This document shows, in pieces, positions 18,844-57,300 of a stretch of DNA of 64,000 bases; the first letter of the stretch is position 1, and every line of letters begins with the position of its first letter. Both the position numbers and the translations under genes were made by a program. The stretch is from an uncultured delta proteobacterium (GTDB lineage Bacteria > Desulfobacterota > Desulfomonilia > UBA1062), in assembly GCA_963752595.1 (NCBI GenBank), contig CAVVYZ010000016.1:1-64000 (forward strand), read 5' to 3'. Below the pieces are notes generated by a model. It searched no databases, was not told the origin of the DNA, and saw only the letters and a program-made list of their open reading frames with translations.

Positions 18844-18884
18844 GGCTCGCGGTGTATCCCGGAGCTGGAGGCGACCATTCCTGA

Positions 18885-19485: not shown

Positions 19486-22137
19486 CTATTTAATTTCGAA
19501 CTTGAAGCCCGCTCCGTCGAGCAGGACCTTGACCTTCTTGATCTGCTCGCCCTTTGCCATGCGTGAAAGGATCTCGCGCGACATCTCGGGCAGCAGGGTG
19601 TTGGTCATGATGTGGTCCGCGTTGCGGGCGCCGCTGTCCACCTCGGTGCACCGGCCGGCAATGGCATCCACGATGTCTTCGCCGTAGATTCGAGCACGCA
19701 TTTGCGGTTTTCCATCATGCGTTTCTTGATGCGGTTGAGCTTGAGCCTGACGATGAGCTGCATGATCTTGTCCGTGATGGGGTAATAGGGCACCACCTTC
19801 AGACGCCCCAGGAATGCGGGTTTGAAGTGCTTGAGCAGGTCTGGCCGGAGCATCTCGGCAAGCGCTGACGGGTCGGGCCTGGTCTCCTCGTCGGCGCAGA
19901 CCTTCATGATGAGGTCGGTGCCGAGGTTGGAGGTGAGGATGATGAGCGTGTTCTTGAAGTCGATCTCGCCGGCCCTCGCCGTCTTCCAGCGTGCCCTTGT
20001 CGAAGACCTGGAAGAACAGCTCCATGACATCGGGGTGGGCCTTCTCGACCTCGTCGAGGAGCACCACGCTGTAGGGCCTGCGTGCGCACCGCTTCGGTGA
20101 GCACGCCCGCCCTCGCCGTATCCCACATAGCCCGGGGGCGAGCCTTTGAGGCCGGAAACCGTGTGGGCTTCCTGGTATTCCGACATGTTGATGGTGATCA
20201 CGTTCTCCTCGCCGCCGTAGAGCAGGTCGGAAAGGGCCAGCGCGGTCTCGGTCTTGCCAACGCCGCTCGGGCCGACGAACATGAAGACCGCCGTCGGTTT
20301 GGACGGGTCCTCGATGCCTGCATGGGCGGTCTGGATCATCTGGGCGACTGAGCGCAAGCGCGTGATCCTGGCCGATGATCCGCTCCCCCAGGAGGTTTTC
20401 CATGTTGAGCACGGTCTCGATCTCGTCGGCCAGCATGCGGCCCGTCGGGATGCCGGTCCAGCCCGAGATCACCTCGGAGATGGTCTGGCTGTCCACCGCC
20501 ATCTGCACCAGAGGCTCGTCGCCCTGGATCTTCTGAAATTCCTTTTCCAGGGCTTTCAGGTCTTTCTGCTTCTTTGGCAGGTCCTTGCGTCTTTGGGTCG
20601 GCGGCGTGGAGTTCGTGGATCTCTTTGCGGACCCCGATGATCTTGTCCGCCGTTTCCATTTCCGCCTGCCACTTCTTGTTCAGATCCTCCAGGCGCTTTT
20701 CCGATCTCTTTCTTCTCGTTCTCCAGGGCCTTGACCTTGCTCTGAATGGTCGGTGCCCATGAGCGTCTCTTTTTCCAGGGCTTTAAGCTCGCTTATCGAT
20801 ATGGGCGATCCGCCTGGTGGCCTCTTCCACCGCAGGCGGGCTCGTGGTCAGGCCGATGGCCACCCGGGCGCAGGCGGTGTCGAGCACGCTCACCGCCTTG
20901 TCCGGAAGCTGCCGGCCCGAGATATAGCGGTGGGAGAGCCGCACCGTGTCGTCGAGCGCCTCGTCCGTGATCATGACCTTGTGGTGGTTTTCAAGGAAAG
21001 GGGCGATGGCCCGCATCATGACCAGTGCCTTTTTCTCGTCCGGCTCTTCCACTTTGACCACCTGGAAGCGCCGGGCCAGGGCCGCATCCTTTTCAAAGTA
21101 TTTCTTGTATTCGGCCCAGGTGGTGGCGGCGATGGTGCGAAGCTCGCCGCGGGCCAGGGCCGGTTTGAGCAGGTTCGCCGCATCGCCCTGGCCGGCCGCT
21201 CCGCCTGCGCCGATCAGCGTGTGGGCCTCGTCGATGAAGAGGATGATGGGCACGGGCGATGCCTTGACCTCGTTGATGACGGATTTGAGCCGGTTTTCAA
21301 ACTCGCCCTTGATCCCTGCTCCTGCCTGGAGCAGGCCTAGGTCGAGCGTACCGGATCTCCACGTCCTGCAGAAGCAGGCGGCACGTCGCCCTGGGCGACC
21401 CGCAGGGCAAAGCCTTCCACCACCGCGGTCTTTCCCACGCCTGCCTCGCCGGTCAGGATGGGGTTGTTCTGCCTGCGGCGGATGAGGATATCGACCATCT
21501 GGCGGATTTCGAAATCGCGGCCCAGCACCGGGTCGATCTCGCCGTTCTTTGCCTGCTCGGTGAGGTTGATGGTGAACTGGTCGAGGGCCTTGGTGCCTGC
21601 GGGTTTCGCCTCGCCGGGCGCGCCCGGCTCAGAACCTGCCTGCGCAGCAGCGCCGCTGTCTTCGGCCGAGCCTTTGACGATATCCATCAGGCTTTCCTGC
21701 AGGGTGTCGACCTTGATCTTCTTGAAGGCATCCGATTCGGAAGCGAGCATCCGCGCGGTCTGGTCGTCACGGAGCAGCGCCAGGATGATATGACCCGACC
21801 GGATGACCTGCGCCTGGTAGTCGATGGATGCGAGCATCCATGCCTCCTGGATCATCTTCGGGATCTGCGGCGAGAAGACCGGCGTGCGGGCATTGCCCGT
21901 CTTGAACCCTTCGAGTGCCCGGGCCAGGTCTGCGGTCAGGCGGTCCGGATTGATCTCGAAATGCCTGAGGATCTTGTGAAGGTCCGTATCCTGGAGGTCC
22001 ATGAGCTTGAGCAGGAAGTGCTCGAGGTCCACCTCATAGTGGGTGTGCGACATGCACAGCCCCGCGGCGGATTCCAGTGCGCCCCTGCAGGTCGTGTCGA
22101 GTTTGGCGATGAGGGTCTTCAGATTGTTTACAGCCAT
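19486..22137 (-). CDS. tssH: T6SS ATPase TssH/ClpV (multiple frameshifts)
   Basis: ClpV N-terminus (LKTLIAKLD...HYEVDLEH), [49 protein letters not shown]. Confidence 0.93.
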
Positions 22138-22159
22138 GACGGATGCTCCTTTCATTCAG

Positions 22160-22231
22160 ATAATCCCCGCAGCAAGCTGCCGGGGCACCCCTTCTCCTCT
22201 CCCCTCGCGAGAGGATACAGGAGAGGGGGTA
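22160..22231 (-). repeat. Palindromic repeat, family B
   Basis: - strand ccccctctcctgtatcctctcgcgaggggagaggagaaggggtgCCCCggcagcttgctgcGGGGat. Confidence 0.75.
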
Positions 22232-22332
22232 TTTCAATACTGTTTCGTGCAGCGCCGAAAAAGCCAAAGCACCGCTCTTTGTTACCATATACGGGGTAGC
22301 GCCTTGCCGACTTTTGTCCTGTAGGTGAACAA

Positions 22333-22395
22333 CCCCCCTCTCCCCAGCCCTCTCCCCCGAGGGGGAGAGGGTTGGGTGAGGGGGCGAAATTGACA
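22333..22395 (-). repeat. REP-like palindromic repeat, family A
   Basis: - strand tgtcaatttcgccccctcacccaaccctctccccctcgggggagaggg..., matching 677-740. Confidence 0.75.
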
Positions 22396-22414
22396 TGGCA
22401 ATAGCTCAGATGTT

Positions 22415-23459
22415 TCATGCGCTCGCTGCTTTCCCCTTCATGACGTCTCCCTCCTGGACGGCGAGGAATACGTCCTGTGTGAGGCGGTCCTTGGGCGACG
22501 TGAGCCAGGTGGACCAGCCGAGCTGCTGTTTCTTTGCCCCAAGCTCGCACGGGGGCACGTCCTGCCTTGAGAGGATGACCCGGATGTCGAACCCATAGCC
22601 CATCCCCACCATGTACCTGACCAGTGAGAAGATCGGGCGGAGGAGGTCGCCGGTAGTGGGCAGGAAGCGCTGGAACTCGGCAAAGCTCATGGGCCCCAGG
22701 TGGATGCGGAAGAAGCTCTGGCGGTCTTTGATGCAGGAGCCGCAGATGCTGTCCACGCCCAGCCCTGAATTTCTCGATCCGAGCTGCGTCCGGTCTTCCT
22801 CGCTCAAAGGGAGCGCCTTCTCGACGAACTGCTCCACCTTCACCTGACGTGCCCGAAAGGTACGACACGGTTGCCTCGATGGCTGCAGCGGACGGCGCCT
22901 GACGCGAGAGGAAACCGGTATAGAACGACATGGATTCCTTGGGCAGGCCGATCTTGTCGGCAAGGCCCTTTGTGCCGAGGCCATCCAGGCTCAGCAGGTA
23001 GGATGAGAGCCGGTCGTCTTCGCCGCTCGTGTAGTTTTCGGGCAGGCGGCCCTTCTTCCACGCGAGGTAGAAAAGCGAGATGAGGCGGTGGTGAAAGATG
23101 TCGAAGAACGCGGCGAGCGTATGGTCCTTCTGCCGCCCCCGATCCTCCACCAGGGAGTTGTACCACTGGGGCAGGACTCCGGACGGGCCGATGAGGCCCA
23201 TGAAGGCTACCCCTACCCCGGCAGGCTTGTCCTCGCCCGGCTCCGTAAACGATGCGATATCGCTCGGGGGAAAGGTGAAGCCCGGCTTCACCGAGAAGCG
23301 CACCGGCTCGCGGGAAGGGACAAGGCTCTTGCCCAGGCGCTCCGCCTCCGGATGGAGCGCCTCCAGGAGGCTCACCATCTGGAAGAAGGAGAACTTGTAG
23401 AACTCCTTCGAGAGACGCTCTGTCAGATCAGGACCTGGTTCCCGCTTCGTGGGGGCCAT
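22415..23459 (-). CDS. tssG: T6SS baseplate TssG (frameshift near 22850)
   Basis: FSFFQMVSLLE, FMGLIGPSGVLP, FFDIFHHRLISLFYLAWKK, LGWSTWL. Confidence 0.9.
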
Positions 23460-25232
23460 TTCTTCAATGCCTCTTTCCGCTGGACGGTGCGTGCCTCCAG
23501 CCGGGTGAATGAGTTCACGGATACGTACTGGGCAAGGAACCGCTCGAGGATGGATGCGAACAGGTAGAGGCCGGAGCCCACGTACTTGTCCTCATCGAAC
23601 TCGATGGAAACCTGCACCCCGCGGCAGAAGGTCTGCCCGATGCGCCTGGTGATGTGCTCGGAAGCCACCCTCGCGATCCCCGATATCTGCTGCCTGGTGG
23701 ATGGGCTGTTCTCGAAGTCGTAGAGCTTGAGGATCTCCTTCAGCCCGTCCTCTCCGCCCTCGACGATGGAGAGGTAGTTGAGCGACAGATGCGAGATGAG
23801 CCGCCACTGCAATGACCCTCCCCAGTGCAGGCCTCCTGGTGGGGGTGGGCTTGATGAGCGAGTGTATCTTGGCAACCGGACCGGCGCTCTCCATGTCGAA
23901 ATCCCCGGCAACGTCCCCGAAGGGAAGCCTGGCGGGCAGGTCGCGGTTCGTGCAGGAGGTGTACACGGTGATGACCTCTGTGGAAGGGTCTGCGGGCCGA
24001 AAGTCGATGTCGGCAAACGAGAGGAAGACGTCGCTCCCGTTGTCGCCCTTCTTCTCCGAGGGCCTCCTCTGCATGTGCCAGAAGACCTTCTTTTTCTTCA
24101 TGTCCGTGTCTTCGAGATGATGCCGGACAGAGTAGAACGGACGGTACTCGACCGCTTCCTGTCCTTCGCCGGTTGGGGAAGAGACGACCCGGTCGATCTG
24201 GAAGATCTCGGTGAATGCCTGCCTGCGCATATCCGGGATCACCCGGTACTCGGTCTTCTGCCTGTCGATACGCACCGGCTCTGCGACGCGCTCGAAAATG
24301 TTGATGGCCGGGACTGCGTTGATGCAGAAGGTGTCCTTGTTGACCACAAGGTCCGATTTCGGGACCTTGTCGAGGTAGAAGGTGATGTCGAGGGTGTCTC
24401 CCAGGTCCGGCTTCTTCAGCCTGCCCAGCCCGGCCAGATCGAAGAACAGGAACTTCTCCGGGAAGCAGAAGTATTCGAACAGGAGGATGTATCCCGGGAA
24501 CGAGCGCTGCGGATGAGGCAGCATGGATTCGCTGTCCCCAAATCCCACCGGCAGGATGCTCTGCTGCGGGTCGAGGACGAGCGTCTCCTGCTTTCCCTTT
24601 TTGTCCTGAACCTGGCACTCCACGTGGCAGACATTGTTGAACAGGAGCTCGTAGAGATGGAACACATGCTGGTGAGGGCCGTTGAGATAAAAACGCATCC
24701 TGTCCCAGCCGATCTCGGAGAGGCTCGCGCTGCCATAGGTCTTGAGCTTGATAGTCAGGGCCCTCACTGCGCCCTTTACCTGCTTTGCAGGGTCTTTCAG
24801 CCCTGCGGAGGCAACCTCCACCGGCCAGATCGTGAGAGGATAGGTGGTGGAGAACTGGCAGGCCGTCCCTCCCACCGGCTTGGAGAACAGGGCCGTATCC
24901 CTTGGGATGTGGTAGCCCGTGGGCGGTATGCTCTGTTTTATGGGGTCGAACTTCACGATGGACATGGAGGGGATCGGGTTCAGGTAGTGCGGATAGATGA
25001 TACTCAGCAGGGATTCGGTGATCTCGGGCAGATCATCGTCGAGCTTCTTGTGGATGCGGGCGCACAGGAAGGCAAAGGCCTCGATGATCCGCTCGGTATG
25101 GGGGTCTTCGCACTTGTCGTTTTCGAGCAGGAGGCGGCCTGCGATCTTCGGATACTTTCTCGCGAACTCCGAGCCCAGTTCCCGGATGTAGGTCAGTTCC
25201 CGTTCGTAGTAGTGGAGAAGGTTGTCATCCAT
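23423..25232 (-). CDS. tssF: T6SS baseplate TssF (frameshift near 23820)
   Basis: YYERELTYIRELGSEFARKYPKIAGRL, DPHTERIIEAFAFL, CTNRDLP, WRLISHLSLN, YVSVNSFTRL. Confidence 0.93.
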
Positions 25233-25247
25233 GGGTGGCTCCTCGTT

Positions 25248-25733
25248 CTATTTCGAAATGACGTACTCGCCCCGGTTCACGTCGAAGTAGGTGTCAAAGG
25301 TCACGGGCTCGGTATCGGATTCCAGAACGAGCAGCCCGTTGATGCGGAAATGGACGTTTCCGCCCCTGTCCTCATCCAATTCGATCTGTACGGTTACGCT
25401 GTGCAGCCTGGGTTCAAAGAGCTCGATGGTCTTCATGATATCGGCTTTCAGCTGCTTTTGTGTTGCCGGGCTCCTGGGGTTTTTCGACGTGAAGTCCTTG
25501 ACCCCGTATACGAACAGAGACTTGCCCAGCTCCTGATATTCGGGCTCGATATCGACGATGTGGCGCCTGGTGTTGAGCAGGTTCTCCAGGTCTCTGACCA
25601 CCGAGGCCCTGACCTGCCTGATGGATGCCAGGCGATACTGGACAGGCTCGTACGAGTTCTGAGGCTCCTCGTCGATGAGCCTGTCCAGCACCGATGCCTG
25701 GGTGATCTGCTGGTGCTCCTCCTGGTCTCTCAT
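25248..25733 (-). CDS. tssE: T6SS baseplate TssE (gp25-like)
   Basis: SVLDRLID, VVRDLENLLNTR, YGVKDF, IELFEPRL. Confidence 0.92.
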   Translation of the reverse strand: MRDQEEHQQITQASVLDRLIDEEPQNSYEPVQYRLASIRQVRASVVRDLENLLNTRRHIVDIEPEYQELGKSLFVYGVKDFTSKNPRSPATQKQLKADIMKTIELFEPRLHSVTVQIELDEDRGGNVHFRINGLLVLESDTEPVTFDTYFDVNRGEYVISK

Positions 25734-25749
25734 CCCTTAGAGATAAGGA

Positions 25750-26248
25750 TCAGCTGCCTTTGTTGGCTTTGAGATCCCAGTTCGAAGCGATGTTCCCTTT
25801 GGGCTTGCCGGTGCCGTGGTCGGTCTCGGTGTAGGTCCACTCGATCTTACCATAGTTGAATCCCACTTCCTCCAGGGGCAGGGTCTCGCCGCCGCTGGCG
25901 CTCCCGCCGGGGCTTACCACGCTGACGATGACATCGGAGAGTTTGTATTCCATATACTTCTGCTTGTCGCCGGTGGCGCGGCACAGTTCGATGATAACGC
26001 TCTTGATGTGGCCGCCGTTGCAGCAGGACAGGTTCAGCTTCGGGGATGCCTTATCCAGCGTTTTTACGATGGAAAAATCCCTGTGGTTGACACCGCTCTG
26101 CGGTCGCGGCGCCGCCGCTGCTCCTGGAACCGGTTGCAGCCTGAGACAACCCGTGAGAGAAAGACAGGATCTCGATCCAGTCCTTGTGCTTATCGTCCGT
26201 ACTCTCTCCAGGTATCCCGTCAATCTTCAAAAAAGCATCAAATGCCAT
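25750..26248 (-). CDS. hcp: T6SS tube protein Hcp (frameshift near 26100)
   Basis: DAFLKIDGIPGESTDDKHKDWIEILSFSHG; DFSIVKTLDKASPKL; EEVGFNYGKIEWTY. Confidence 0.93.
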
Positions 26249-26307
26249 GGTAGTATTCCCTCCTTAATCTCCATTTTCTTTTGTTTATAAATCCACGATT
26301 CATATAT

Positions 26308-26347
26308 CCCTTCGGAGCGGCAACCTTTATGCCGCCGCTCCGAAGGG
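26308..26347. other. 14-bp stem hairpin between tssC and hcp
   Basis: cccttcggagcggc...gccgctccgaaggg. Confidence 0.55.
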
Positions 26348-26366
26348 TTTAAGCCCTTAATGAGTA

Positions 26367-27864
26367 TTATCCCTTGGCCGGGGGCGGCAGATCCGCCACC
26401 AGCCGCAAGGAGACGGTGAGCTCATCGAGCTGGTAATGGGGCTTCAGAAACGCCACTGCCCGGTATGCGCCCGGCTTGCCCGGGATCTCGGTGACATCGA
26501 TCCGGGCTTCCCGCAGCGGCAGCTGGCCTTGCTTCCTGGCCGGCATTGTCGTCCAGGAGCACGTAGTTGCTGATCCAGCGGTTCAGGAAATCTTCGGCAT
26601 TCTTCGGGTCATGAAGCTGCCGATCTTGTCCCGCATCATGGACTTCAGGTAATGGGCAAACCGGGATACGGCCAGGATGTACTGCAGCTGCGAGGAAAGC
26701 CTCGCATTGGCAGTTGGCCGCATCGGAGTCGTACACCTTGGGCTTGTTGGCCGTCTGGGTGCTGAAGAATGCCGCATAGTCGGTGCCCTTGCAGTGGACC
26801 AGGGGAATGAAGCCCAGGTCGGCAAACTCTTTTTCCCGCCGGTCGGTGATGGCGATCTCGGTGGGGCATTTCAGCGCCACGTCGCCCTCGTCGGTCTTGA
26901 AGGTATGGACCGGCAGACCCTGCGACCAGGCCGCCGCCTTCGACGCCCCGGATGGCCGCGCACCAGTGGTACTTGGCAAAGGCATCGGTCAGCCGGGCGC
27001 CTAGGGCATAGGCGGCATTGCCCCAGAGATACTTGCTGTGATCCGTGCCGTCCACTTCCTCTTCGAAGTTGAAGGCCTCGACCGGGACATTGGCCTGGCC
27101 GTAGGGGAGCCGCATGAGCATATGGGGCAGGGCCAGCGCCACATAGCGGGAATCCTCGGATTCGCGGAAGGACTTCCACTTGGCGTAATCGACGCTCTGA
27201 GAAGATCTTGGCCAGGTCGCGCGGGACCGCCGAGCTCGGTGAAGCTGTCCAAGTTGAACATCTTGGCGGATGCTGCCGGAGATGAAGGGCGCATGGGCGG
27301 CCGCGGCCACCTGGGAGATCTTTTCCAGCAGGGCCAGATCCTGCGGATGGTTGCTGAATTCGTAGTCGCCGATGAGCGCGCCGTAGGGGGCGCCGCCGAA
27401 CATGCCGAACTCCTCTTCGTAGATCTTCTTGAACAGGGCGGACTGGTCGAACTCGCTGGCCTTTTCCATGTCCTTGAGCAGATCTTTCTTGGAGACATTC
27501 ATGACCCTGATCTTCAAGGTCTCGCCCGGTCTCGCTCTGGTTCACCAGGTAGGCAAGGCCTCTCCACGAAGCCTTCGAGCTTCTGGAAATCGGCGTGGTG
27601 CATGACCTCGTTGAGCTGGTCGGAGATAGCTGGTCGATCTGGGCGATCCGGGCGTTGATCATTGGCCTCCGTGTCTTTGGAAACCATCATGGCGCCTTCC
27701 ATGATCTGGCTGACGAACTCGCTGATGAGGTCCTTGGCCCGTCGCCTTCTGGCTCTCGTCCCGGGCCATGCGGCCTTCCTCGATGATCTTGTCGAGCAGG
27801 CCCTTCCTCCTGCTACCGTCGGCTGGTGCGGACCTGCTTGAGCCTGTTGTTCCTTGTCAGCCAT
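26367..27864 (-). CDS. tssC: T6SS sheath large subunit TssC/VipB (many frameshifts)
   Basis: [70 protein letters not shown]. Confidence 0.93.
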
Positions 27865-27880
27865 GGCGCCTTCCTCCCTC

Positions 27881-28414
27881 TTATTCTTTTCCGGTCGCTT
27901 CCGGTTGGCCACCCGGCTTCTTGTACCCAAGCTTCTCGAGCGACTCGGTGCTGGAGATAACCTCCTGCAGCAGTTCGTCGAGCTTGTCGTTGCCGTCCAG
28001 CTTGCCCAGAAGGTCGGAAAGCTTCTTCCTGGCCTCGACCAGTTTCCGGAGCGGCTCTGATCTGCTCGGCCAACCTTCTCCGGATGGAAATCGTCCAGGG
28101 ACTTGAACTTGCAGCTCCACCGCCAGCTTGGTAGTCGTCGTTCGTGAGCTTGTTGTCGACCTTGAAGGCCAGCCTGGGCTTCATCCCCTCGAGCACCTTG
28201 TTGAAGTTGTCGCGGTCGATCTCGACGAACTTCCGGTCCTTCAGCTTGGGAAGCGGCTCATCCGGGCTTGCCCGACAGATCGCCCAGCACGCCGACGACA
28301 AAGGGGATCTCCTTCATCTCGATGGCGTCCGCCGATCTCCACGTCATAGGTGATCTGGACCCGGGGGGACCGCACCCTGTCCAACTTATGCTGTGTGCTT
28401 TCCTTCTTGGCCAT
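27881..28414 (-). CDS. tssB: T6SS sheath small subunit TssB/VipA (frameshifts)
   Basis: MAKKESTQHKLDRVRSPRVQITYDV, LKDRKFVEIDRDNF, PLRKLVEARKKLSDLLGKLDGN. Confidence 0.92.
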
Positions 28415-28443
28415 ACCATATCCTCCTTTTTACCTTCGCGGCC

Positions 28444-29796
28444 TTAGCCTTTATAAACAAAAGCCTTCGTTATGTCCTGGTTGCACAGTTTCTGGAAAAG
28501 CTCGTTCTTTGCCTTGTACTTGTCCTCGTCGGAGGCCTCGTCCGCAGTGAGGCACTGATAATATGCATCGATGACCTCGGCGATCCACGTGGGGGACTCC
28601 CACTTTTCGAGGCTCAGCTCTCCGATGAGCGTATACAGCTGTTCGATGACCGGCCTGGCGAGATCGTGCCGGTTGACCTTGAGGCAGAGCTTCGCGATGA
28701 GGAGCCGGTAGCGGTTCTGCTGCCTTACTGACGGCGCGCTGCTCACCGCAGCAGTCAATTGTTCGAGTGCCTGTCTGATCCCGGATTGGTTGACTGTCTG
28801 GAGCGCGGCTTCCCACAATGCGTCTTCGATCCCTGCACCATCCTGGACAAAGAATGCCGGGACAGCGCCGGGGCTCAAAGACGGTGATCCCTGCGCCGCT
28901 ACGGCCTGACCTGCAGCCGGGTACTCAGTTCCGGATACTCCGCCGGCAGATGCTGCCGCCTTCGTCTGGGCATCTTTCATGGGCACCTCCCTTTTGTCGG
29001 GCTCCTGCACCCGCCTGTCTTTCAGGATCCGGGAAATGAGCTGCTCGCAGTCCTGGATGGCTGCACGCATCTCCGAGAGCCTGGGTGCCTCTTTGCCGAA
29101 CTTCTCGTCCACGAGGCCGTCCATCTTGTCGAACTCGGCGAGGCAGGTGTTTAAGCAGCCTTCGACCTTTTCGTAGAATGCCTTGGATGTGGCAGCGACT
29201 GCGGCATCGAACTCCTCAGCCGGGATCTTGCCTTCTGCGATAAGGTCTTCCCGTGCCCGGCGTTTCTTTTCATCGACGTCGCCGAACTGGTTGAGGATGT
29301 CTTTCTCGGTGCCCACCTTGCGGGAATCCTGCCAGGAAAGCCAGGAGTAGCCGGGGGTTTTAGCCGGATCGGTAAGAGGGATGTCCTTTAAGGCGGACCA
29401 TAGCTTGTCGTTCAGGAACTCGAAAGGCCCGGCCCGGAACTCCATGTCGCCGTCTTCTATCAGGGGATAAACCGTATCCCAGTACTGATCGAGGAGACCG
29501 TTGATAATGACGAGACCTGTGTTCAAACCCTCGAAGCCTTTTGTTTTCACCAGGGCCTCGGTCAGCCATGCAGCGATCTGGAGGTCTTTGGTCCTGGTGG
29601 TGAGTGCATCGACTGAGGTCTTGATGACCGCGGCCCAGTCCGACGTCTTGATCTCGCGCTCCCAGTCGCCGCGGGCGAGCATGTCGTCCGCTTTCCTCGC
29701 CTCCTTGATGGTGTCGTAGACGGGCGTATAGCGCAAGTCTTCGCCGGCCGGATTTTCTCCCGGGATAGGTGCCGTACATGCCTGGATATCGATCAT
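28444..29796 (-). CDS. tssA: T6SS TssA (ImpA N-terminal domain)
   Basis: PIPGENPAGEDLRY...IKEARKADD...DWAAV...TKDLQIAAWLTEA; C-terminal LEKWE motif. Confidence 0.9.
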   Translation of the reverse strand: MIDIQACTAPIPGENPAGEDLRYTPVYDTIKEARKADDMLARGDWEREIKTSDWAAVIKTSVDALTTRTKDLQIAAWLTEALVKTKGFEGLNTGLVIINGLLDQYWDTVYPLIEDGDMEFRAGPFEFLNDKLWSALKDIPLTDPAKTPGYSWLSWQDSRKVGTEKDILNQFGDVDEKKRRAREDLIAEGKIPAEEFDAAVAATSKAFYEKVEGCLNTCLAEFDKMDGLVDEKFGKEAPRLSEMRAAIQDCEQLISRILKDRRVQEPDKREVPMKDAQTKAAASAGGVSGTEYPAAGQAVAAQGSPSLSPGAVPAFFVQDGAGIEDALWEAALQTVNQSGIRQALEQLTAAVSSAPSVRQQNRYRLLIAKLCLKVNRHDLARPVIEQLYTLIGELSLEKWESPTWIAEVIDAYYQCLTADEASDEDKYKAKNELFQKLCNQDITKAFVYKG

Positions 29797-29829
29797 ACTG
29801 TAACTTGGCCTCCCATCGGTAAAAATTCT

Positions 29830-30693
29830 TTACTTCTCACGGTAGGTGAACACGGCCTCCCGGATCTCCAAGATGGCTATTTCTTTTTTTCCGGCCTGGT
29901 ACACGTGCTGGCCTGCACCCCGGTAATAGCCGTCGCCGAGCGCTATCCAGTCGGTCATCCGCCCGAGCTTGATCTTCTCGTCTTCATGGGAAGAAGAGCC
30001 GGGATAGAGCACGGGCAGGAAGCAGCCCACATTCAATCCCCCCCAGGTGGTGACGTTCGCCTGGATCCAGATGAGATCGGTGAGCGAGCGGGGCGCGGTC
30101 ACGGTGAGCTCGCGGATGGCTGCAAAGGGGATCCATACATAGCGGCCGTGGATGAATGCTTCGAGGAACGGGGACAAGACGCTGTCGGTGTCCTTGAGCC
30201 CGGAGAAGGTCTCGCCGTTGAGCGTTCCCTTGACCTTCGGGATGGATTTCTCTGCCTGGGCGAAGAGCGCTCCGACGGCTTTGATGTCCCCCTCTCCTTT
30301 ATCCTCTCCCGCAACAGGAGAGGAAGGAGTGGTACCCCCTGCCGGGGATCTTTTGATGAAAAGGAGCTTCCTGACTGCATTGTAATAAGGTTCGAAAAAG
30401 TCTGGTGCTTCGGGCAGGAACGACGGGAGCTGCTTGAGGTCGAAGACGGCAATCCGCTCCTTTTCTGCAGCGATAAGCTGGGAATAGACGGAAGCGCCCT
30501 TAAGACGTGACGGGTCCTGGGTCGAGATCATGTCGAGATGCACGGATGCCTTGTCCCACTCTCCGAGCAGGACCAGGACCTGGAACAAGAGCGTCCTCTT
30601 TCCTGTGTCCGCAGGAGAAGACTTCACCCCTTCCACGAGTGCTGCCCGGGCTTCGGACAGCCGCCCTTCCTTAATCAAGCTCCTCAAATCCAT
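29830..30693 (-). CDS. tagJ: T6SS accessory protein TagJ (ImpE/SciE) with an in-frame repeat insertion
   Basis: VKSSPAD...LFQVLVLLGEWDKA, DTDSVLSPFLE, YVWIPF, APRSLTDLIW, PVLYPGS, LGRMTDW, GAGQH. Confidence 0.9.
   Translation of the reverse strand: MDLRSLIKEGRLSEARAALVEGVKSSPADTGKRTLLFQVLVLLGEWDKASVHLDMISTQDPSRLKGASVYSQLIAAEKERIAVFDLKQLPSFLPEAPDFFEPYYNAVRKLLFIKRSPAGGTTPSSPVAGEDKGEGDIKAVGALFAQAEKSIPKVKGTLNGETFSGLKDTDSVLSPFLEAFIHGRYVWIPFAAIRELTVTAPRSLTDLIWIQANVTTWGGLNVGCFLPVLYPGSSSHEDEKIKLGRMTDWIALGDGYYRGAGQHVYQAGKKEIAILEIREAVFTYREK
30288..30350 (+). repeat. Palindromic repeat, family B, inside the tagJ CDS
   Basis: ccccctctcctttatcctctccc (23 nt identical to the 8922 copy) followed by aggagaggaaggag..CCCCctgccGGGGatc. 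Confidence 0.75.
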
Positions 30694-30787
30694 ACCACGT
30701 AAAACCTTTCACTCTTAAAGTCTACCAAACCATAAGCCATGCAGAAAAACAATAAAAAACCAGTATCGTTGCCGGAATGCGCCTACT

Positions 30788-31493
30788 TTACGAAAAAGTC
30801 CACAACCGGATGAAATCCTGAGAAGCGAGCGACCTCCTGAACAGGGCGAAATGGGTATTTTCCGGTATGCCGCCCATGAACACCGTATTCGGGGATTCGC
30901 CGATGAGCGCCTTCAGCCGGGTGTGCCACAGGACGAGCGTATCCGACGGGTCCTCGCTGAGCCCTCCCTTGATGGGCAGGAAGAGCTCTGCAGCATTCCG
31001 ATAATGAATCGAGCTCATGCATATCCTGGTATTTCCCTGCTGCGGCGCCCGCCCCCTGGAACAGGGTCGGATACGGCAGCATCCCGAGGTCGCTCTCCAG
31101 GGCCGACACGTCGAACGATTTCTTGGAGCCCACGTATTCCATCCGGCTCCAGATCCCTTCGAAGACGTATGGAAGCAGTTCCCAGGTTTCCTCCCAGCCG
31201 TCCAGCGGCCCTGTGCCGAAGATGAGGAACGGGTACGGCCGGCCCACGCTGTCGTTGCTGTCGCGGAGCAGCCCGCAGACGAGCTCCTGCTTTTTCATGC
31301 CCCGGGCCCAGAACCTCCAGGAACAGGCTTGCTGCGGCCTTTCCTGCAGCGCCGAATACCCGGACTCCATCCAGTCGGCAAAAGCCTTGAGCAAAGGCGT
31401 CTGGGCCCCGATGGCGATATAATCCCTCGCCACGGGGTGCTTACCCGCAGCCCCCCAGGCCCAGCCCTGCTTTTGCTTTACTGAGCCCAGCAC
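30788..31493 (-). CDS. tagF: T6SS-associated TagF (ImpM/SciT-like), frameshift near 31000
   Basis: GKHPVARDYI, WRFW, DSNDSVGRPYPF; located next to tssM. Confidence 0.82.
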
Positions 31494-34400: not shown

Positions 34401-34932
34401 TGGCATACCTGCCTGCGGTATCGATGATGATGGCCTGCTCGAAGAACCACCAGTCGCAGTTCTTCGTGCCGGAGATCCCGGAGATCCGGTTGACCTCGGA
34501 AAAAGGCGAGGAGAGCTTGGCGCTCTTGATCGACGTGGTCTTGCCCGATCCGCTCTCGCCGAGGACCATGTACCACGGCAGGACATAGAGCGGGTTGCCC
34601 TGTTTCTTCAGGTGCGATTTCTTCAGGGCGTCGACGGCTTCTTTCCACTTGTCCTGGAGCTCGGAGGCGTGTTTCTTCTCGTCGTCTTTCAGTGACCTCA
34701 GGTAGGCGTTGTCCTGCTCGATGATCTGGCTGACGAAGTGCTGCTCCTTTTTCCTCAGCATGACCTTACGGATGATAAAGCCCGCCAGACCCACCCCAAT
34801 AAACAGGACAATGAGGAAGATGCCGACCCACCAGGGCCAGCCCATGCCGAGCACGATTCCGAACACCAGGAGAAGGACGAGTATGCTGCTTAATGCAATC
34901 AGTGCATAAACCATCGGACTCTGTTTCATCAC
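31478..34932 (-). CDS. tssM: T6SS membrane complex TssM/IcmF (frameshifts near 33900-34260)
   Basis: N-terminal TM segments, LYVLPWYMVLGESGSGKTT, CDWWF, IDTAGRY, PLNGLVV, FPVYVLVTKCDLIQG, LLRGIYFS. Confidence 0.92.
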
Positions 34933-35606
34933 GGCACCATCTTGAAAAGGGTTTCGCTGACGTTGTTCAGGACGAAATGATAAATCAGGAACAGCGCAGC
35001 AAAGAGTACGACCGGAACGCCTGCCGCCACGATATTGAAGAAGGGAAAACTGCTCCGGGTTTTGACCTTTACCTCAGGCCCGGTATCCGGGGGGTAGCCT
35101 TCGGGGAACAGCTCGCCCTTTTCCATGGACGGGATGCCCAGGGAGCTGCCGGTGAGCACTTTGAGGTTCGAGGTCTTGAGCTGGTCGATGAGGAACTTGT
35201 CGCCCTCGTTGCAGTAGCGGCCCGTGAACCCCATGGCCAGGCACAGGTAGTAGACCTCCCGGCCGTCCTTCTGGTGGGGGCCCAGGCTGTTGAGGCGGTC
35301 GAAGAACAGCTCGCCCGCATTCGTCGTCTGGTAGTGGATCCTCTGGAGGAGATCACGCTGCCAGAGCTGCCTGCTCGACCAGGTCGAGTTCATGATGGAC
35401 TCGTCGATCCAGGCACAAACAGCGAACCGCGCCGCCTCGTAATCCTCCTGCGTGATCTCGCCGTAGCCCACGCCGTCCCTGCTCTGGGTGAGGAGCCGGT
35501 CGATATCCGCCCTCACCTGGTCGTACGCCGGCTGGCGTTTGTCATAAGTTTTCTTGAAATAGAGCACGTAGCTGATCAGTTCGATGAAGCAGTCACTCAG
35601 TCGCAT
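34929..35606 (-). CDS. tssL: T6SS TssL/DotU
   Basis: ARFAVCAWIDE, NAGELFFDRL, EVYYLCLAMGFTGRY; C-terminal TM helix, no OmpA domain. Confidence 0.92.
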   Translation of the reverse strand: MRLSDCFIELISYVLYFKKTYDKRQPAYDQVRADIDRLLTQSRDGVGYGEITQEDYEAARFAVCAWIDESIMNSTWSSRQLWQRDLLQRIHYQTTNAGELFFDRLNSLGPHQKDGREVYYLCLAMGFTGRYCNEGDKFLIDQLKTSNLKVLTGSSLGIPSMEKGELFPEGYPPDTGPEVKVKTRSSFPFFNIVAAGVPVVLFAALFLIYHFVLNNVSETLFKMVP

Positions 35607-35609
35607 GTT

Positions 35610-36995
35610 TTACGTCCTCCCTACGACCATGAGCTCGACCTTGAGATCTCCGGCCGCACTGTCCCAGAACAGGGCGATGTTCTTGCCCTTCTGCACGTTG
35701 GCCCATTGGTCGCCGTAGTGTTCTATCTGAAAATAACTGGCGTTCGCCCTCCTCGGCAGCTCCTGCGGCGGGATGGGCAGGTGCTTGAGGCCCAGTGCCG
35801 GCAGTGCCCGCACGATGAGGATGGCAAGCGCTTCCCGCGAGCTCAGTTTTGCGCTCGTATCGATGGACCTGAGAACCTCTGCAGGATCTGCCTCGGTCTC
35901 GATCACGAGGTAGAAGCGGTTCGACCCCTCGAAGATCGCAGGCGGCAGATCCGCGGAATAGTATGTCCCGTCGTATACGAGAGAAAAGACGTATTCGGGG
36001 CCGGAGGTGATCTCATCGAGCAGGCGGGTGATCATTTCCTGCGCTGCCGAGAAACAGGAAGAAAGATTTTCATGAGAGTACGACGGGATCGAGCCCTTAC
36101 CCCCCTCGGTGCCTCCCAGCACTGTTACCTCCTGCGAGAAGGTGGAGAGGTCTCCGACTATCCGGCGCAGCATCCCGTAAATGGTCCACGGGTGAGCCTG
36201 GGCATCGTCCGTGAGGTGGTAGAGCTGGGGGATGTAGCGGTTCAGCGACCGCAAGGCCAGGAGAAAGACCATGTCCCGCGCCCCGAACTCGGCCGTGTGT
36301 ATGCCCCGGTCCCGCTTATAGAGCTCGAGCTGGTGCCCGCGGGCCGTGACCTGGTCGCGGACTTCCTTGACGACCTTCTCGAGAACCGGCGAGGCTTCTA
36401 TGGAAACGCAGGGCGGGATGTACCGCTCGGAGAGGACCACGTCCTCGCCTTTGCGTTCGAGCTGGGCGATCGGGATGACCTCATAGTCGGCAAACCGGTC
36501 CTGCTCGGTCTCCCAGAAGATCCGAACGCTATAGAAGAGCCTTTTGATCTCTGCAGACGGGCCCTGTTCGTGCATATCGGGCATCTCTTCGAAGTCGGAC
36601 GGCGCAACGAACCGGGTGGTGACCTTGGAAAGCCTCGTGGAGCCGTCCATGACCGTGACGTTCAGGCCCTGATCACTCCATTTCTTTATGCCCAGGTACA
36701 CCTTCAGCGGCTTGCCGCCCTCGACCCAGTCCTCGTCAAAACCCCGTGCCTCCACCAGTGCATTGTCCGGGATGGCCACGTGGGTCATGTCCCGGAACAC
36801 GAACTCTCCGCCCGTGATCTGGAATGTCCTGGTCTCCAGCGCGGACTTCTGGACCTGCAGCGAATTCACCCCCCACAGGTGGGGCATGAGGAACCGGTAT
36901 GCCGGTGCCGTGAGTGACTGGAGATAGCGGTCGGAGAGCTGGAAATGCTGGGGCTGCAGAAACAAACCGTGATGCCAGAAGATCGGCCTCTCCAT
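35610..36995 (-). CDS. tssK: T6SS baseplate TssK
   Basis: IFWHHGLFLQPQHFQ, YIPPC, PIPPQELP...YFQI. Confidence 0.93.
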   Translation of the reverse strand: MERPIFWHHGLFLQPQHFQLSDRYLQSLTAPAYRFLMPHLWGVNSLQVQKSALETRTFQITGGEFVFRDMTHVAIPDNALVEARGFDEDWVEGGKPLKVYLGIKKWSDQGLNVTVMDGSTRLSKVTTRFVAPSDFEEMPDMHEQGPSAEIKRLFYSVRIFWETEQDRFADYEVIPIAQLERKGEDVVLSERYIPPCVSIEASPVLEKVVKEVRDQVTARGHQLELYKRDRGIHTAEFGARDMVFLLALRSLNRYIPQLYHLTDDAQAHPWTIYGMLRRIVGDLSTFSQEVTVLGGTEGGKGSIPSYSHENLSSCFSAAQEMITRLLDEITSGPEYVFSLVYDGTYYSADLPPAIFEGSNRFYLVIETEADPAEVLRSIDTSAKLSSREALAILIVRALPALGLKHLPIPPQELPRRANASYFQIEHYGDQWANVQKGKNIALFWDSAAGDLKVELMVVGRT

Positions 36996-36998
36996 GCC

Positions 36999-37517
36999 CT
37001 ATTCCTCCTGTGTTGAAACGATCTGTTTGGGCCCGAGCTTGATGACGGCGTTCAAAGGCATGGGCACCATCCGCTTGCTGAAAAGGCCCCTCTTTTCCTG
37101 GGGGATCCGGTAGAACCTGACGATCTTGTCTTTGTCGATGTTGTAGTACCCGGCTACGATGCCTACGAACTTGGCCCCCTCTGCCCTGTCCAGGCTGGCT
37201 TTCTGATTTTTGCCCGGATTCACGATGACCCTTCTCGCATTGGCGACGCTCGGGTCGAAGTTGCTGCACGAGAGCAGCTTGTAGAGGCCGTCGGTATCCT
37301 CGGCGAGCTGTCTGAACTCATTGGGGTCCCTGAGCTGGTACACGCACACCGACAGGGTATGCGATGTGCCGTCGCGCAGGTTGAGCTTTTTATCCGGCTC
37401 AAAACTCAGATTGATCCCCTTTTCTTCATACTCCCACCTGGCAGGCGTCGGCGCGGCGCATGAAGCCAGCAGGAAAAGCGTGCATAGAAAAAACAGGATG
37501 GTACGTACCGATTTCAT
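36999..37517 (-). CDS. tssJ: T6SS lipoprotein TssJ
   Basis: Lipobox LLASC; LN...LSVCVYQL, FVGIVAGYY. Confidence 0.9.
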   Translation of the reverse strand: MKSVRTILFFLCTLFLLASCAAPTPARWEYEEKGINLSFEPDKKLNLRDGTSHTLSVCVYQLRDPNEFRQLAEDTDGLYKLLSCSNFDPSVANARRVIVNPGKNQKASLDRAEGAKFVGIVAGYYNIDKDKIVRFYRIPQEKRGLFSKRMVPMPLNAVIKLGPKQIVSTQEE

Positions 37518-38263
37518 TAAGATTTCCCCTCCCCACGGCTGAATGACCGTTGACAGCTCTTCTCAAACTCCCGCAGCAGGTCTTGTGCGAACCGCTCGGA
37601 CTCAAACCATTTCTTGATCTTGGCAAAAGATGCCTCATACACCTCGAAGGCCTCGGCCTTCTTGAGCGGCCCGAACTTTAAACCCGAGCCTAACCCTGAT
37701 TCTATCTTGCAAGGGTCTATTTCCGCAAGTATGTTTCTTATGGTGCTGCGGGATGCGTCCTGGAACGCATTGTGCGAGACGAGAAAAGCCTTCTTGATCT
37801 GCCCCAGGTATTCTTCGAGGGGCTTCGATAGCTCTTGCGATTCCAGATCCCCGCCGATGACGGCCCTGATCGTCTCTTCCCCTGACCCGCTCCCGCCGAG
37901 CGTGGCATTCATCACCCGGATGATCTCGTTGAGAGAATCGAACACCGTGTTGAGCGAAGCAGCCAGCTTTTCCAGGGTCTGAGGGGATGACGCATCCGCC
38001 AGAGCGGCCCTGTTTCCCAGGAGGAGCCGGACGAAATCTTCCAGGACGGCAGAGCCCTGCTCCGGTTGCGCCTGTTTGCCTTTCAGCTCTTCCTGCACCC
38101 GGCGGGCGATGGCAATGCGCTCACCGGGTTGCAGCCCTTTGAGCTCTTCATCCAAATACTGCCTGATGGCTCCCTTTGCATCTGCTCCCTCGGCGGCATA
38201 GATGCCCTGTACGGCCCGGGCGAGTTTTGTGATCGATAACCGGTTGTTCATTACAGCAGCCAA
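37517..38263 (-). CDS. Hypothetical T6SS protein resembling the TagH/Fha C-terminal domain, with no FHA domain
   Basis: HNAFQDASRSTIRNILAEIDP...KAEAFEVY...F...REFEKS resembles the TagH C-terminus. Translationally coupled to tssJ (TAATG). Confidence 0.6.
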   Translation of the reverse strand: MAAVMNNRLSITKLARAVQGIYAAEGADAKGAIRQYLDEELKGLQPGERIAIARRVQEELKGKQAQPEQGSAVLEDFVRLLLGNRAALADASSPQTLEKLAASLNTVFDSLNEIIRVMNATLGGSGSGEETIRAVIGGDLESQELSKPLEEYLGQIKKAFLVSHNAFQDASRSTIRNILAEIDPCKIESGLGSGLKFGPLKKAEAFEVYEASFAKIKKWFESERFAQDLLREFEKSCQRSFSRGEGKS

Positions 38264-38264
38264 C

Positions 38265-40679
38265 CTACTTCTTTCCCTTGTCAGGATTGATGATGATCGT
38301 CTCTGCCAGAGAGTCGTCTTCCTTGAAAGGCTCGCTCTTCTTTTCCTCTTTCTTCATGTCCGGCATGCCGGTTCCGGCTCCGGGAATCTTCTTTCCCGCG
38401 CCCGAAATCGGGCTCATGATGACCGTCTCCGGGATATCGTCCTCGGGCTCGGGCCGGGTACGGCCCTTTTCCGTTTCCCTCGTCAGCGGTTTATCATTGG
38501 CTGCCGGGGCTGAACCCATGATCACGGTTTCCGGGACATCCTCCACGGTTCCGTGGCCGGTTTTCATGATTACGGTCTCTTCCGGGCTCTCTTCCTGCTT
38601 GCCCGGGGACGACCCCATAATGACCGTCTCCGCAATCTCTTCCGGCTTCTTTGCCTGCGTGAGGATGACGCTCTTCGGCGACTGGCCGGCCTTCATATCT
38701 CCCATCAGGGTACGGACATGGTCGGCGGTAAGAACAATGGTCTCGTGGGAATCTTCCAGGCCGGTGTCCTTTGTTACGCTCTCTGCACACTCCTCGGGAG
38801 GAGCATGCATGACTACGGTCTTCTCACCATCCTGGTCGAGCGGGACTTCGACCCTGAACTGCTCCGGTGGAGAGGGGGATATGATCATGGTTTCTCCGCC
38901 GTCTTCTCCTGCCCTCCCCTCTCCTGTGGCTGCTCTTCCCTCTTCCGGCATCGCTCGCACTTTAGTAATCACCGGTGCCGGCTGCTCCGGAGGAGCCGCC
39001 GTATCATGGCCGGTATCTCCGGGCGCTTTTTCTTGCATGGTTTCATACGATACGATGATGTCTTCAAGGATTGAGCTGATGGCCTTTTCCGGGGACTTCG
39101 CCGTGCTTTCTCCGGCACCCGGCGCGTGGCTGAACAGCTCCTGCTTTACCGTGTCCCTTAAGAAGTCGATGTCCTCCAGGAAAGCCGGGGCTGAAAATGC
39201 GGAATCCGGCTTCATGCCGTTTGCCAGCAGAGACCATCCGAGGTCCAGGGCCTTCTGCCAGAGCGCGGCCCATTCCTCACGGACCGTCGACCTGTCGGGG
39301 TTCCAGAAGATGTCTGCAGGATCAAAGATATGCTCGCCATTTATTCGTGCGAATCCGGCAGACCCTTGCTCCGGGGACGCAAGCAGGGAATTTATCCTCT
39401 CAGAAAGTGCTTTGCTGATATCGGAAGCCCCCTGGAGGTTGTTCGCGGCAAGGACCTGGAACCACAGGAGGCCGAGCATGTACGTTCCGTAGGAGGGCGG
39501 CATTGCGGGCAGGGCCGTCTCCCCCATCTCGATGATCTCGAGCGAGAAGTTCCAGAAGAACGGCAATCCGCTCTGTTGCTGCTGCAAGCTCACCCACAGC
39601 CTGTCCGCAGACCCGGCGAGATCCGGATAGCGGCATGCATTGGTTCCCGTAAGGACGATTTTTGAAAGCTGCGCGAGGAAGGCGCACTTAAGATAGAGGA
39701 TTTCGAGGAATCTCCTCTCGTCCTGAGTGAAAAACAGGTGCTGCCCTGTTGAGAGTGAAGGGGCAAGCGCTTTGACCGAGAGCAGCCTGCCCGTCTCGTT
39801 GTTCCCGTTCAATCGGGTTTTGAGCTCGCTGCCGGCGGCGCCTGAAAGCAGGGCGAGGAAATCAAAGGCATTGACCGTACCCGGCTCTAATACGAGCAGG
39901 AAGAAGGGGTAAAACGAAAACGGCACAATCCTCTGCCCGGCCAGTCCTTTGCTTTCATAACATTCCCTGCGGGTTGGACACGTTGTGCAGGGGAAGGATT
40001 CAGGGGGAGCGTCCTTGCCCATGAGCATTCCGAAATCCTTCACCAGTGCATGCCGGCCCTTTACCTTGGCCGGCTCGGTCCCCGCAGGGGCACTTGCGTA
40101 GAAATCAGTCGAACCCTTCTGCGAGAGGCACGAAGGGCAGTACAGGTAGCGGTTTAAAGATGAGGAGTAGGCTTTGAGCCCGTTTTCCTTCAGCACTGCA
40201 TCATCGCGGCAGAGTATAAGATCGTTGCCGCAGAAAGGGCACGGCGGGTGGAAAAACGTTTCTGTGGCGCGGCAGTAGAATAATGATGAAAACGGGATGA
40301 GGCTGCCGTCTTCGCCCACCTGCCCCTGCAGGGTGATGAGCGAGTCGCCTTTCTTCCGGAAGACTCTCTGCCAGCTTTCCTCCACGAGAAGATTTGTCAT
40401 GGGTACGATGCCGCCGGTACTCATGGAATACGCATCTTTCGAGACCAGGAGGAATAGCTGCTTTACCGGCCGGGAGCCGCCGCTTTTGACCTGTGCTGCA
40501 ATGATGCGGGTAAACGGCCCTGATTCACTGACAACCGCAAAGGGAGACCGGGGCTGTTCTTCGTCCGGCCGGTCATCGTTCATGCGTGATACGCTTAAGC
40601 GGAAGCCCGGATGAGCGGGCAGCAGATATGGCAGCAATGTTGGGTATGCGGGTGTATGGTCCATCGTCATCCTCTCCAC
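38265..40679 (-). CDS. Large hypothetical protein: Cys-rich (Zn-binding) N-terminus, degenerate kinase-like middle, Thr-motif repeat tail
   Basis: CPFC, CPSC and CTTC motifs; YPDLAGSADRLWV and SYGTYMLGLLWFQVL; repeated ETVIM-type motifs. First gene of the T6SS operon. Confidence 0.75.
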   Translation of the reverse strand: MERMTMDHTPAYPTLLPYLLPAHPGFRLSVSRMNDDRPDEEQPRSPFAVVSESGPFTRIIAAQVKSGGSRPVKQLFLLVSKDAYSMSTGGIVPMTNLLVEESWQRVFRKKGDSLITLQGQVGEDGSLIPFSSLFYCRATETFFHPPCPFCGNDLILCRDDAVLKENGLKAYSSSLNRYLYCPSCLSQKGSTDFYASAPAGTEPAKVKGRHALVKDFGMLMGKDAPPESFPCTTCPTRRECYESKGLAGQRIVPFSFYPFFLLVLEPGTVNAFDFLALLSGAAGSELKTRLNGNNETGRLLSVKALAPSLSTGQHLFFTQDERRFLEILYLKCAFLAQLSKIVLTGTNACRYPDLAGSADRLWVSLQQQQSGLPFFWNFSLEIIEMGETALPAMPPSYGTYMLGLLWFQVLAANNLQGASDISKALSERINSLLASPEQGSAGFARINGEHIFDPADIFWNPDRSTVREEWAALWQKALDLGWSLLANGMKPDSAFSAPAFLEDIDFLRDTVKQELFSHAPGAGESTAKSPEKAISSILEDIIVSYETMQEKAPGDTGHDTAAPPEQPAPVITKVRAMPEEGRAATGEGRAGEDGGETMIISPSPPEQFRVEVPLDQDGEKTVVMHAPPEECAESVTKDTGLEDSHETIVLTADHVRTLMGDMKAGQSPKSVILTQAKKPEEIAETVIMGSSPGKQEESPEETVIMKTGHGTVEDVPETVIMGSAPAANDKPLTRETEKGRTRPEPEDDIPETVIMSPISGAGKKIPGAGTGMPDMKKEEKKSEPFKEDDSLAETIIINPDKGKK

Positions 40680-57207: not shown

Positions 57208-57225
57208 AGATTCTCCATAAAAAAA

Positions 57226-57300
57226 TGGTAGGCACGCAGGGATTTGAACCCCGGACCCCCACCGTGTCAAGGTGGTGCTCTCCCACTGAGCTACGTGCCT
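57226..57300 (-). tRNA. tRNA-Val(GAC)
   Basis: AGGCACGTAGCTCAGTGGGAGAGCACCACCTTGACACGGTGGGGGTCCGGGGTTCAAATCCCTGCGTGCCTACCA folds as a cloverleaf with encoded CCA. Confidence 0.97.

Follow-up and report, generated by a model that had tools for sequence, protein, structure and literature searches.

The closest described counterpart of the locus analysed here is TagH/Fha (Fha1, ImpI, VCA0112; TIGR03354), a protein of type VI secretion systems (T6SSs) in which an FHA domain (PF00498) is followed by a disordered linker and a C-terminal domain (PF20232). It belongs to the PpkA(TagE)-PppA(TagG)-Fha(TagH)-TagF pathway of threonine phosphorylation in Pseudomonas aeruginosa H1, Serratia and Acidovorax; how phosphorylated TagH/Fha triggers T6SS assembly is described as unclear in the accessible part of a 2026 review of T6SS accessory factors (PMC13584744). 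In Agrobacterium, PpkA phosphorylates TssL in the sequence DLPpTVVEI, Fha binds only the phosphorylated form, and FHA domains are specific for phosphothreonine (PMC3953482, in excerpt). In Vibrio cholerae a short FHA-less isoform, Fha-S, is translated within fha beside full-length Fha, condenses and binds TssE (PMC13389060, in excerpt). Here we describe two adjoining genes, gene 1 and gene 2, at the head of a T6SS operon in an uncultured deltaproteobacterium of the lineage UBA1062. They lie in the window, i.e. the whole analysed stretch of 64,000 nucleotides of contig CAVVYZ010000016.1. We consider it moderately probable that they are parts of a TagH split in three, which acts as an assembly switch: gene 2 supplies the C-domain, the tail of gene 1 the linker and a separate tandem FHA protein the reader.

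A first-pass annotation had proposed the two open reading frames (ORFs) at the operon head as a control module tightly coupled to tssJ. Their coordinates match; gene 1 and gene 2 are separated by one base, and gene 2 and tssJ overlap in the sequence TAATG. The database calls are 799 amino acids for gene 1, the ATG at 40664 standing 6 nt after GGAGAGG, and 244 amino acids for gene 2, versus an ORF of 248. Our literature search, in which coverage of subscription journals was thin, found no description of the module. Its features are as follows:

38265..40679, minus strand: gene 1, 804 amino acids from GTG; likely start ATG 40664, giving 799 amino acids
39135..40649, minus strand: predicted protein-kinase-like fold with degenerate catalytic motifs, residues about 11-515 of gene 1
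39960..40274, minus strand: nine near-invariant cysteines, C136-C240, likely two to three zinc sites; insert placed from secondary structure
39033..39092, minus strand: conserved helix after the kinase fold, residues 530-549, candidate docking helix for gene 2
38268..39038, minus strand: acidic, proline-rich, likely disordered tail with eight threonine motifs, candidate phosphothreonine ligands for FHA domains
37517..38263, minus strand: gene 2, 244-248 amino acids, homologue of the TagH C-domain without FHA
37871..37873, minus strand: Thr131 of an invariant T-I-R, candidate retained phosphosite by hhalign, register uncertain

The TagH-like protein, the threonine tail and their candidate partner genes

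The resemblance of the 248-residue protein to the C-terminal domain of TagH, suggested in the first-pass annotation, is borne out by hhalign (probabilities 77-91). The local alignment with canonical TagH C-domains reached a probability of 76.7 (E 2e-5), and the end-to-end alignment of residues 64-247 with canonical TagH a probability of 90 (E 2e-7), the reversed control giving 0.5. Direct family matches are weak: the window protein scores 20 bits (E 6.6e-4) against Pfam T6SS_FHA_C (PF20232), below the cut-off of 23.7, and 11.8 bits against TIGR03354, where the cut-off is 120.25. Among the 120 homologues shown, PF20232 is carried by 25, and the fusion protein P0371 (see below) is over the cut-off. 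An FHA domain (PF00498) was found neither in gene 2 nor in the lists of these 120 homologues. The model of gene 2 is all-helical (predicted local distance difference test, pLDDT, 76; predicted template-modelling score, pTM, 0.48); searched against the PDB with Foldseek and VIA it gave no meaningful match, the best being helical bundles at Z 6.8. Judged by the profile alignments, gene 2 is thus a divergent homologue of the TagH C-domain that lacks FHA.

T131-I132-R133 is invariant in 118/118 homologues of gene 2, and T131 lies at most three columns from a conserved threonine of TagH, which stands 130-142 residues from the TagH C-terminus. Since Fha of A. citrulli requires T640, inside its C-domain of residues 562-777 (PMC12607579 and bioRxiv 2023.12.21.572528, both in excerpt), gene 2 may keep the classical phosphosite, with the register uncertain. 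The likeness to TagH/Fha comprises the slot before tssJ-tssK-tssL, an alignment along the whole C-domain with an invariant threonine that may stand at about the known phosphosite, and a disordered region preceding the C-domain. On the other hand, the module has no FHA in cis, its linker is placed on a separate gene behind a pseudokinase and bears repeated threonine motifs, and residues 8-64 of gene 2 form an extra N-terminal three-helix domain. Fha-S of V. cholerae is likewise an FHA-less C-domain protein of similar size, as far as the excerpt of that report goes; gene 2, however, is a gene of its own, with no full-length TagH observed in that position.

The tail of gene 1 consists of 257 residues, two of them aromatic, and holds eight motifs in which a threonine is followed by three hydrophobic residues (T597, T621, T647, T685, T702, T718, T752 and T794); 10,000 shuffles gave a mean of 0.19 and a maximum of three. 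Motif statistics were taken from 250 homologues of gene 1, the tail counts from the 246 with tails of 30 residues or more. These tails hold 1006 motifs, as compared with 0.09 per shuffled tail, with at least one motif in 240/246, a median of four, three to six in most and up to nine; in 223 of the 240 the final copy is at most 25 residues from the C-terminus. As a consensus the motif reads [DE]-[DE]-L-x-E-T-V-I-L-S-P. The residue after the glutamate is threonine in 708 cases and serine in three, and position +3 is leucine or isoleucine in 87%. FHA domains prefer leucine or isoleucine at position +3 from the phosphothreonine. Outside gene 1, where it occurs 0.53 times per 100 residues, the motif is nearly absent, with none in the 56 TssL ORFs and none in the 75 gene 2 ORFs of related loci. 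It resembles DLPpTVVEI of Agrobacterium TssL, where FHA reading in trans is likewise described (PMC3953482, in excerpt); here, in contrast, TssL has no motif (0/56) and repeated sites are borne by a soluble protein. The helix before the tail has the consensus D-x-A-I-x-x-I-L-x-x-I-x-x-K-W and is retained in the tail-only and fused forms described below. It would likely dock gene 2.

Among the candidates scored, 145 homologues of gene 1 and 158 of gene 2 were found at E ≤ 0.001. The locus set consists of the best 80 of 150 loci. Gene 2 follows gene 1 in 75/75 loci where the contig continues, and tssJ or tssK comes after the pair in 72/73 loci with downstream room. Three loci show variations of their own: in L011 tssK comes straight after gene 2 and there is no tssJ, L145 has a gene 1 of 251 residues comprising the last helices only, and L002 a second tssJ paralogue (L002:5482-6042) 4 kb upstream of gene 1. 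Named matches are mostly Desulfobacterota/Deltaproteobacteria, with others in Nitrospirota, Methylomirabilota and Candidatus (Ca.) Brocadia; named or cultivable relatives such as Geobacter and Ca. Brocadia are among the hosts.

Of 300 further genomes drawn evenly from the phylum, each at least 90% complete, 33 have TssK, 12 the folded part of gene 1 and 16 gene 2, all within the 33; all 16 gene 2 genomes thus have TssK. The linkage of the homologues to T6SS, a check set in the first-pass annotation, is borne out by these counts and by the locus set. A tandem FHA-FHA protein without a TagH C-domain occurs in 15 of the 16 gene 2 genomes and in 0/284 others. It was also found in 27/30 hand-picked genomes with gene 1, three of which supplied the profile while one repeats G289. 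The first FHA domain keeps the G-R, S-x-x-H and N-G residues in 11/11 proteins examined; the second is degenerate where the pattern matched (5/11). A full-length orthologue of one membrane Hanks kinase with PEGA is present in 14 of the 16 genomes, the genome of the query included, and in 0/17 other T6SS genomes. The tandem FHA gene stands in a cluster with PP2C, a trypsin-like protein, the Hanks kinase-PEGA protein, TPR-CsgG proteins and a TssB/C-like gene, PP2C adjoining it in 10/11 fetched regions. TagF was found in 15/16. Of the 17 other T6SSs, four carry a canonical FHA + FHA_C TagH in the slot, just before tssJ or tssK, one carries other FHA proteins and twelve have neither.

Relatives thus have the kinase, PP2C, FHA protein and TagF of the threonine phosphorylation pathway. 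The first-pass annotation had supposed a rewired, cytoplasmic and possibly dead version of that pathway. The kinase-like fold with lost motifs, described below, agrees with it; the pathway itself is probably neither dead nor purely cytoplasmic, because relatives carry an intact membrane Hanks kinase, PP2C and tandem FHA. Compared with the PpkA pathway, reading would fall here to a free-standing tandem FHA-FHA protein that has no TagH C-domain, phosphorylation would probably be aimed at a multi-site tail borne by another protein, and gene 1 has an acidic tail and no transmembrane segment or periplasmic sensor domain. The module would work like a TagH-centred threonine phosphorylation pathway, and neither gene is TagH or PpkA by defining features.

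Several genes around these clusters were recorded as well. Membrane Ser/Thr kinases with a Cache-like or CHASE2 sensor lie directly upstream of gene 1 in L006, L007, L010, L013, L014, L021 and others, and the kinase/Cache cluster spans 16/80 loci. In L117 (9618-11180), L118, L121, L122 and L123 a single-chain TssB+TssC-like protein of 520-526 residues, with VipA and VipB matches and one conserved E-T-L-L-V motif, directly follows the tandem FHA gene; we take it to be TagB/TsmA-like. TPR-CsgG, CsgG-like and outer-membrane beta-barrel genes stand beside the kinase cluster (L105:2283-14418, L049:4640-9515), and by analogy with TagQRST the TPR-CsgG/beta-barrel genes are a candidate envelope sensor.

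The kinase-like domain of gene 1 and its reduced forms

Gene 1 matched no Pfam or NCBIfam family over the cut-off, and no Pkinase match was obtained. An AlphaFold2 model of residues 6-550, built from 120 aligned sequences, has a pLDDT of 85 and a pTM of 0.85. In a wide VIA search of 48,161 chains all 50 matches shown were protein kinases, with Z 11.2-13.8. The best was the pseudokinase IRAK3 (Z 13.8, root-mean-square deviation 3.8, 239 aligned residues, 11% identity). The kinase fold that the first-pass annotation had surmised was thus recovered in the predicted model. Foldseek returned nothing at E ≤ 0.001 (best E 0.02), every listed match being a kinase or kinase-like. Sequence profiles of gene 1 and gene 2 gave nothing below E 0.08 against the PDB, and hhalign of gene 1 against three kinases of the loci was not significant (probability 0.2). 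An Atlas search placed kinase clusters at 0.80-0.85, which we note as a lead only.

As the first-pass annotation had it, YPDLAGSADRLWV and SYGTYMLGLLWFQVL, likened there to kinase subdomains VIb and IX, are both present in the 804-residue protein, and GxGxxG, HRD and DFG are absent where expected. The homologue columns likewise lack the Gly loop, HRD...N, DFG and APE; motifs were mapped from secondary structure, without residue-level superposition. Over the 250 homologues D-S-D-P stands at the place of the Gly loop, and the catalytic loop has the form H/Y-P-D-L-x-x-S-L-D-R-I-W-V, its aspartate present in 55%; the metal-binding asparagine position is arginine in 58%. The DFG position is D-I-G, its aspartate kept in 70%, and reads E-M-G in the window protein. 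No beta3 lysine is invariant, position 81 being K50/R33 in a register taken from secondary structure. Near-invariant are tryptophan, proline and asparagine positions together with nine cysteines, and several polar residues, N96, R177, E326 and K331, are invariant. The three CxxC motifs and extra cysteines pointed out earlier correspond to C147/150, C181/184 and C231/234 with C136, C157 and C240, each kept in 245-250 of 250 homologues. In the model the Cys-rich insert probably lies between alphaC and beta4 and is putatively Zn-binding. By hydropathy no transmembrane segment was found in gene 1, the best 19-residue value being 1.58 versus 2.49 for the TssL control.

The loss of motifs suggests that the folded part of gene 1 is likely a pseudokinase. 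Like IRAK3 it would combine a kinase fold with missing canonical catalytic motifs, from which it differs by the Cys-rich insert; YukC/EssB, the pseudokinase of type VIIb secretion, is likewise part of a secretion system, a comparison drawn from partial descriptions. At E ≤ 1e-30 the gene 1 profile collected 607 clusters (50% identity), a count to which fragments and matches to the tail contribute, and the domain is predicted to constitute an unnamed pseudokinase family. The word pseudokinase does not occur in the accessible part of the 2026 review (PMC13584744). The module would add such a family and mark a T6SS subtype among anammox bacteria and the bacteria of anaerobic sediments and digesters.

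The domain can be missing. In four genomes of the family f9, gene 2 and the tandem FHA are present and gene 1 is replaced by a protein of 126-132 residues with the helix and two to three motifs. The module occurs in 11/55 f9 genomes: eight are tail-only (126-164 residues), two have the kinase fold, one of them broken, and one is cut by the contig end. A quick TssK tree was built from 61 rows (the window, 40/80 loci and 20/21 other T6SS loci). It joins the four tail-only rows with a support of 99 and places this clade within a larger group, supported at 95, that also contains 20 full-length rows, an arrangement pointing to a loss of the kinase fold. Module-less T6SSs of G061, G093 and G236 (L088, L089, L091) nest in the same TssK group, the tandem FHA being missing too; separately, TagF matches of these three loci fall in open frames of about 790-830 residues, possibly fusions. 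A search for longer forms of gene 2, weak in itself, yielded one cluster, a fusion of helix, repeats and gene 2 of 530 residues, with three near-identical members on different contigs (P0371-P0373). An apparent fusion of gene 1 and gene 2 in L060 was rejected as an artefact of a scaffold N-gap. The core of the module is the Thr-repeat tail and the TagH-C protein. Because one lineage keeps helix and tail without the kinase fold, the pseudokinase appears to be an optional add-on.

A proposed split of TagH and competing readings

Since canonical TagH unites FHA, disordered linker and C-domain, and these elements reside on three genes here, TagH has likely been split in three. This proposal is built directly on folds, motifs, gene order, co-occurrence and the forms that are fused or tail-only; from these we infer phosphorylation, each of the binding steps and an activating effect. 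A membrane Hanks kinase (PpkA-like, with PEGA) would phosphorylate threonines of the tail and, in gene 2, perhaps Thr131. Catalysis likely comes from this ordinary kinase, because it co-occurs with the module, and for the same reason gene 1 as a replacement of PpkA was rejected. The tandem FHA protein would then bind the phosphothreonines via its intact first FHA domain, while the helix before the tail would couple gene 1 to gene 2. The TagH C-domain of gene 2 would thereby cluster, engage the TssJLM/baseplate assembly site and overcome TagF, for which TagF antagonism and Fha foci in Serratia may serve as a model (PMC6082577, in excerpt). For condensation of the C-domain and its binding to TssE, the precedent is Fha-S of V. 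cholerae (PMC13389060). The PP2C phosphatase would reset the switch, and the pseudokinase/Zn domain would serve, where present, for input or docking. With reader, phospho-linker and C-domain naturally on separate chains, each part could be studied by itself, and the module would link phospho-TagH of Pseudomonas, phospho-TssL of Agrobacterium, which is read in trans, and the condensate model recently put forward for Fha. A more elaborate version, which we regard as doubtful, envisages a T6SS subtype of anaerobic Desulfobacterota, Nitrospirota and anammox Planctomycetota with a kinase-switchable condensate of multi-site phosphothreonine tail, FHA reader and self-associating TagH C-domain, gated by the Zn-binding pseudokinase as a cytoplasmic sensor (redox, metal or nucleotide).

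Several observations weigh against the split. In the window genome, whose assembly is 84% complete, no Hanks kinase over the cut-off, PP2C_2, tandem FHA or VgrG was found; of the pathway parts only TagF was recovered, and FHA domains occur there in two proteins, one a cyclase and the other an HD protein. The tandem FHA was also not found in G219 and in 3 of the 30 further genomes. As the co-occurring genomes are kin, the counts overstate independence. In L075 no tssJ, tssK or other T6SS gene lies within roughly 9 kb of the pair, the alignment by hhalign contains a three-column gap at Thr131, and the quick TssK tree has many open forks. The fusion P0371 is known at the protein level, and among the loci fetched with it, 29 from metagenomes and 11 of the family, none showed a fusion.

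Some of these points would suit a scaffold that is independent of phosphorylation, which we think rather unlikely. The E-T-V-I-L repeats would then be strand-addition motifs binding a T6SS part (e.g. TssK, TssM or ClpV) and clustering gene 2 at assembly sites, while kinase and FHA would act on another target such as Thr131. The motifs are indeed strongly hydrophobic and beta-favouring, gene 2 has an invariant threonine of its own, the kinase and FHA partners were not found in the window genome, and V. cholerae Fha works without a kinase, no phosphosite having been found on it (PMC8993066). Yet the threonine is almost never serine or valine (708 threonines, three serines), as suits reading by phosphothreonine-specific FHA domains, and genomes that have lost the kinase fold but kept the tail still have the tandem FHA. 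If the tail is phosphorylated and read, it could still be a decoy that soaks up kinase and FHA activity and keeps the system off until a strong signal arrives. Many equivalent sites (median four, up to nine) suit a sink, gene 2 carries a candidate site of its own, and the T6SSs of G061, G093 and G236, which belong to the same TssK clade, may still function although the module is missing from them altogether. We nevertheless judge a decoy unlikely, as the fusion of tail and gene 2 reproduces the layout of linker and C-domain in TagH, which acts positively and depends on its disordered linker for activity (bioRxiv 2023.12.21.572528, in excerpt).

The remaining readings concern gene 1 itself. An atypical active kinase, or a nucleotide-binding switch, acting on its own tail or on gene 2 would agree with the whole kinase fold predicted, with the aspartates of H/Y-P-D-L and D-I-G in 55% and 70% and with invariant N96, R177, E326 and K331. 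It is very unlikely, however: the aspartates of the catalytic motifs vary while structural Trp, Pro and Cys are constant, the metal-binding asparagine is mostly arginine (58%), the Gly loop is missing and the window protein has E-M-G for DFG. Moreover, the domain is dispensable and ordinary kinases co-occur. If gene 1 encoded a secreted effector, with gene 2 as its chaperone or immunity protein, an enzyme-like fold in a T6SS locus would fit. T6SS effectors are typically variable and adjoin vgrG; the place at the operon head in 72/73 loci, the single copy and the TagH C-domain of gene 2 make this extremely improbable.

The operon and the window genome

After gene 2 the order is tssJ, tssK, tssL, tssM, tagF, tagJ, tssA, tssB, tssC, hcp, tssE, tssF, tssG and clpV. 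The tagF gene noted in the first-pass annotation is thus confirmed, by two family matches. A sigma-70 promoter upstream of gene 1 was looked for and not found. The coordinates are:

36999..37517, minus strand: tssJ (PF12790, TIGR03352)
35610..36995, minus strand: tssK (PF05936, TIGR03353)
34929..35606, minus strand: tssL, 225 amino acids
31478..34932, minus strand: tssM, two frames in the assembly
30783..31493, minus strand: tagF (PF09867, TIGR03373)
28444..30693, minus strand: tagJ (ImpE) and tssA
19486..28414, minus strand: tssB, tssC, hcp, tssE, tssF, tssG and clpV, several frameshifted

In the window assembly tssM, tssC, hcp, tssF, tssG and clpV are frameshifted; gene 1 and gene 2 are intact. 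Frameshifts lie at 19486-34932, 55322-57270 and 61600-62962, and the single thrS and an acyl-CoA dehydrogenase are broken as well. Where tssM and tssC are broken, a single-base indel separates the window from low-depth contigs of close relatives (one study). Together with the split of the sole thrS this makes an assembly error plausible; decay of the T6SS is another possible cause.

Elsewhere in the window genome, contig C24 carries part of the accessory cluster, namely its CsgG-like and outer-membrane genes (G000 C24:64627-68190), with no kinase block adjoining. Another wiring was seen in L104 (3809-6509; G207), where two FHA proteins precede a tssJ-like gene and tssK and give no T6SS_FHA_C match. 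Directly downstream of clpV, at 17546-19382 of the window, genes with an Stv domain, DUF7947 and DUF7946 are located, which are possible cargo.

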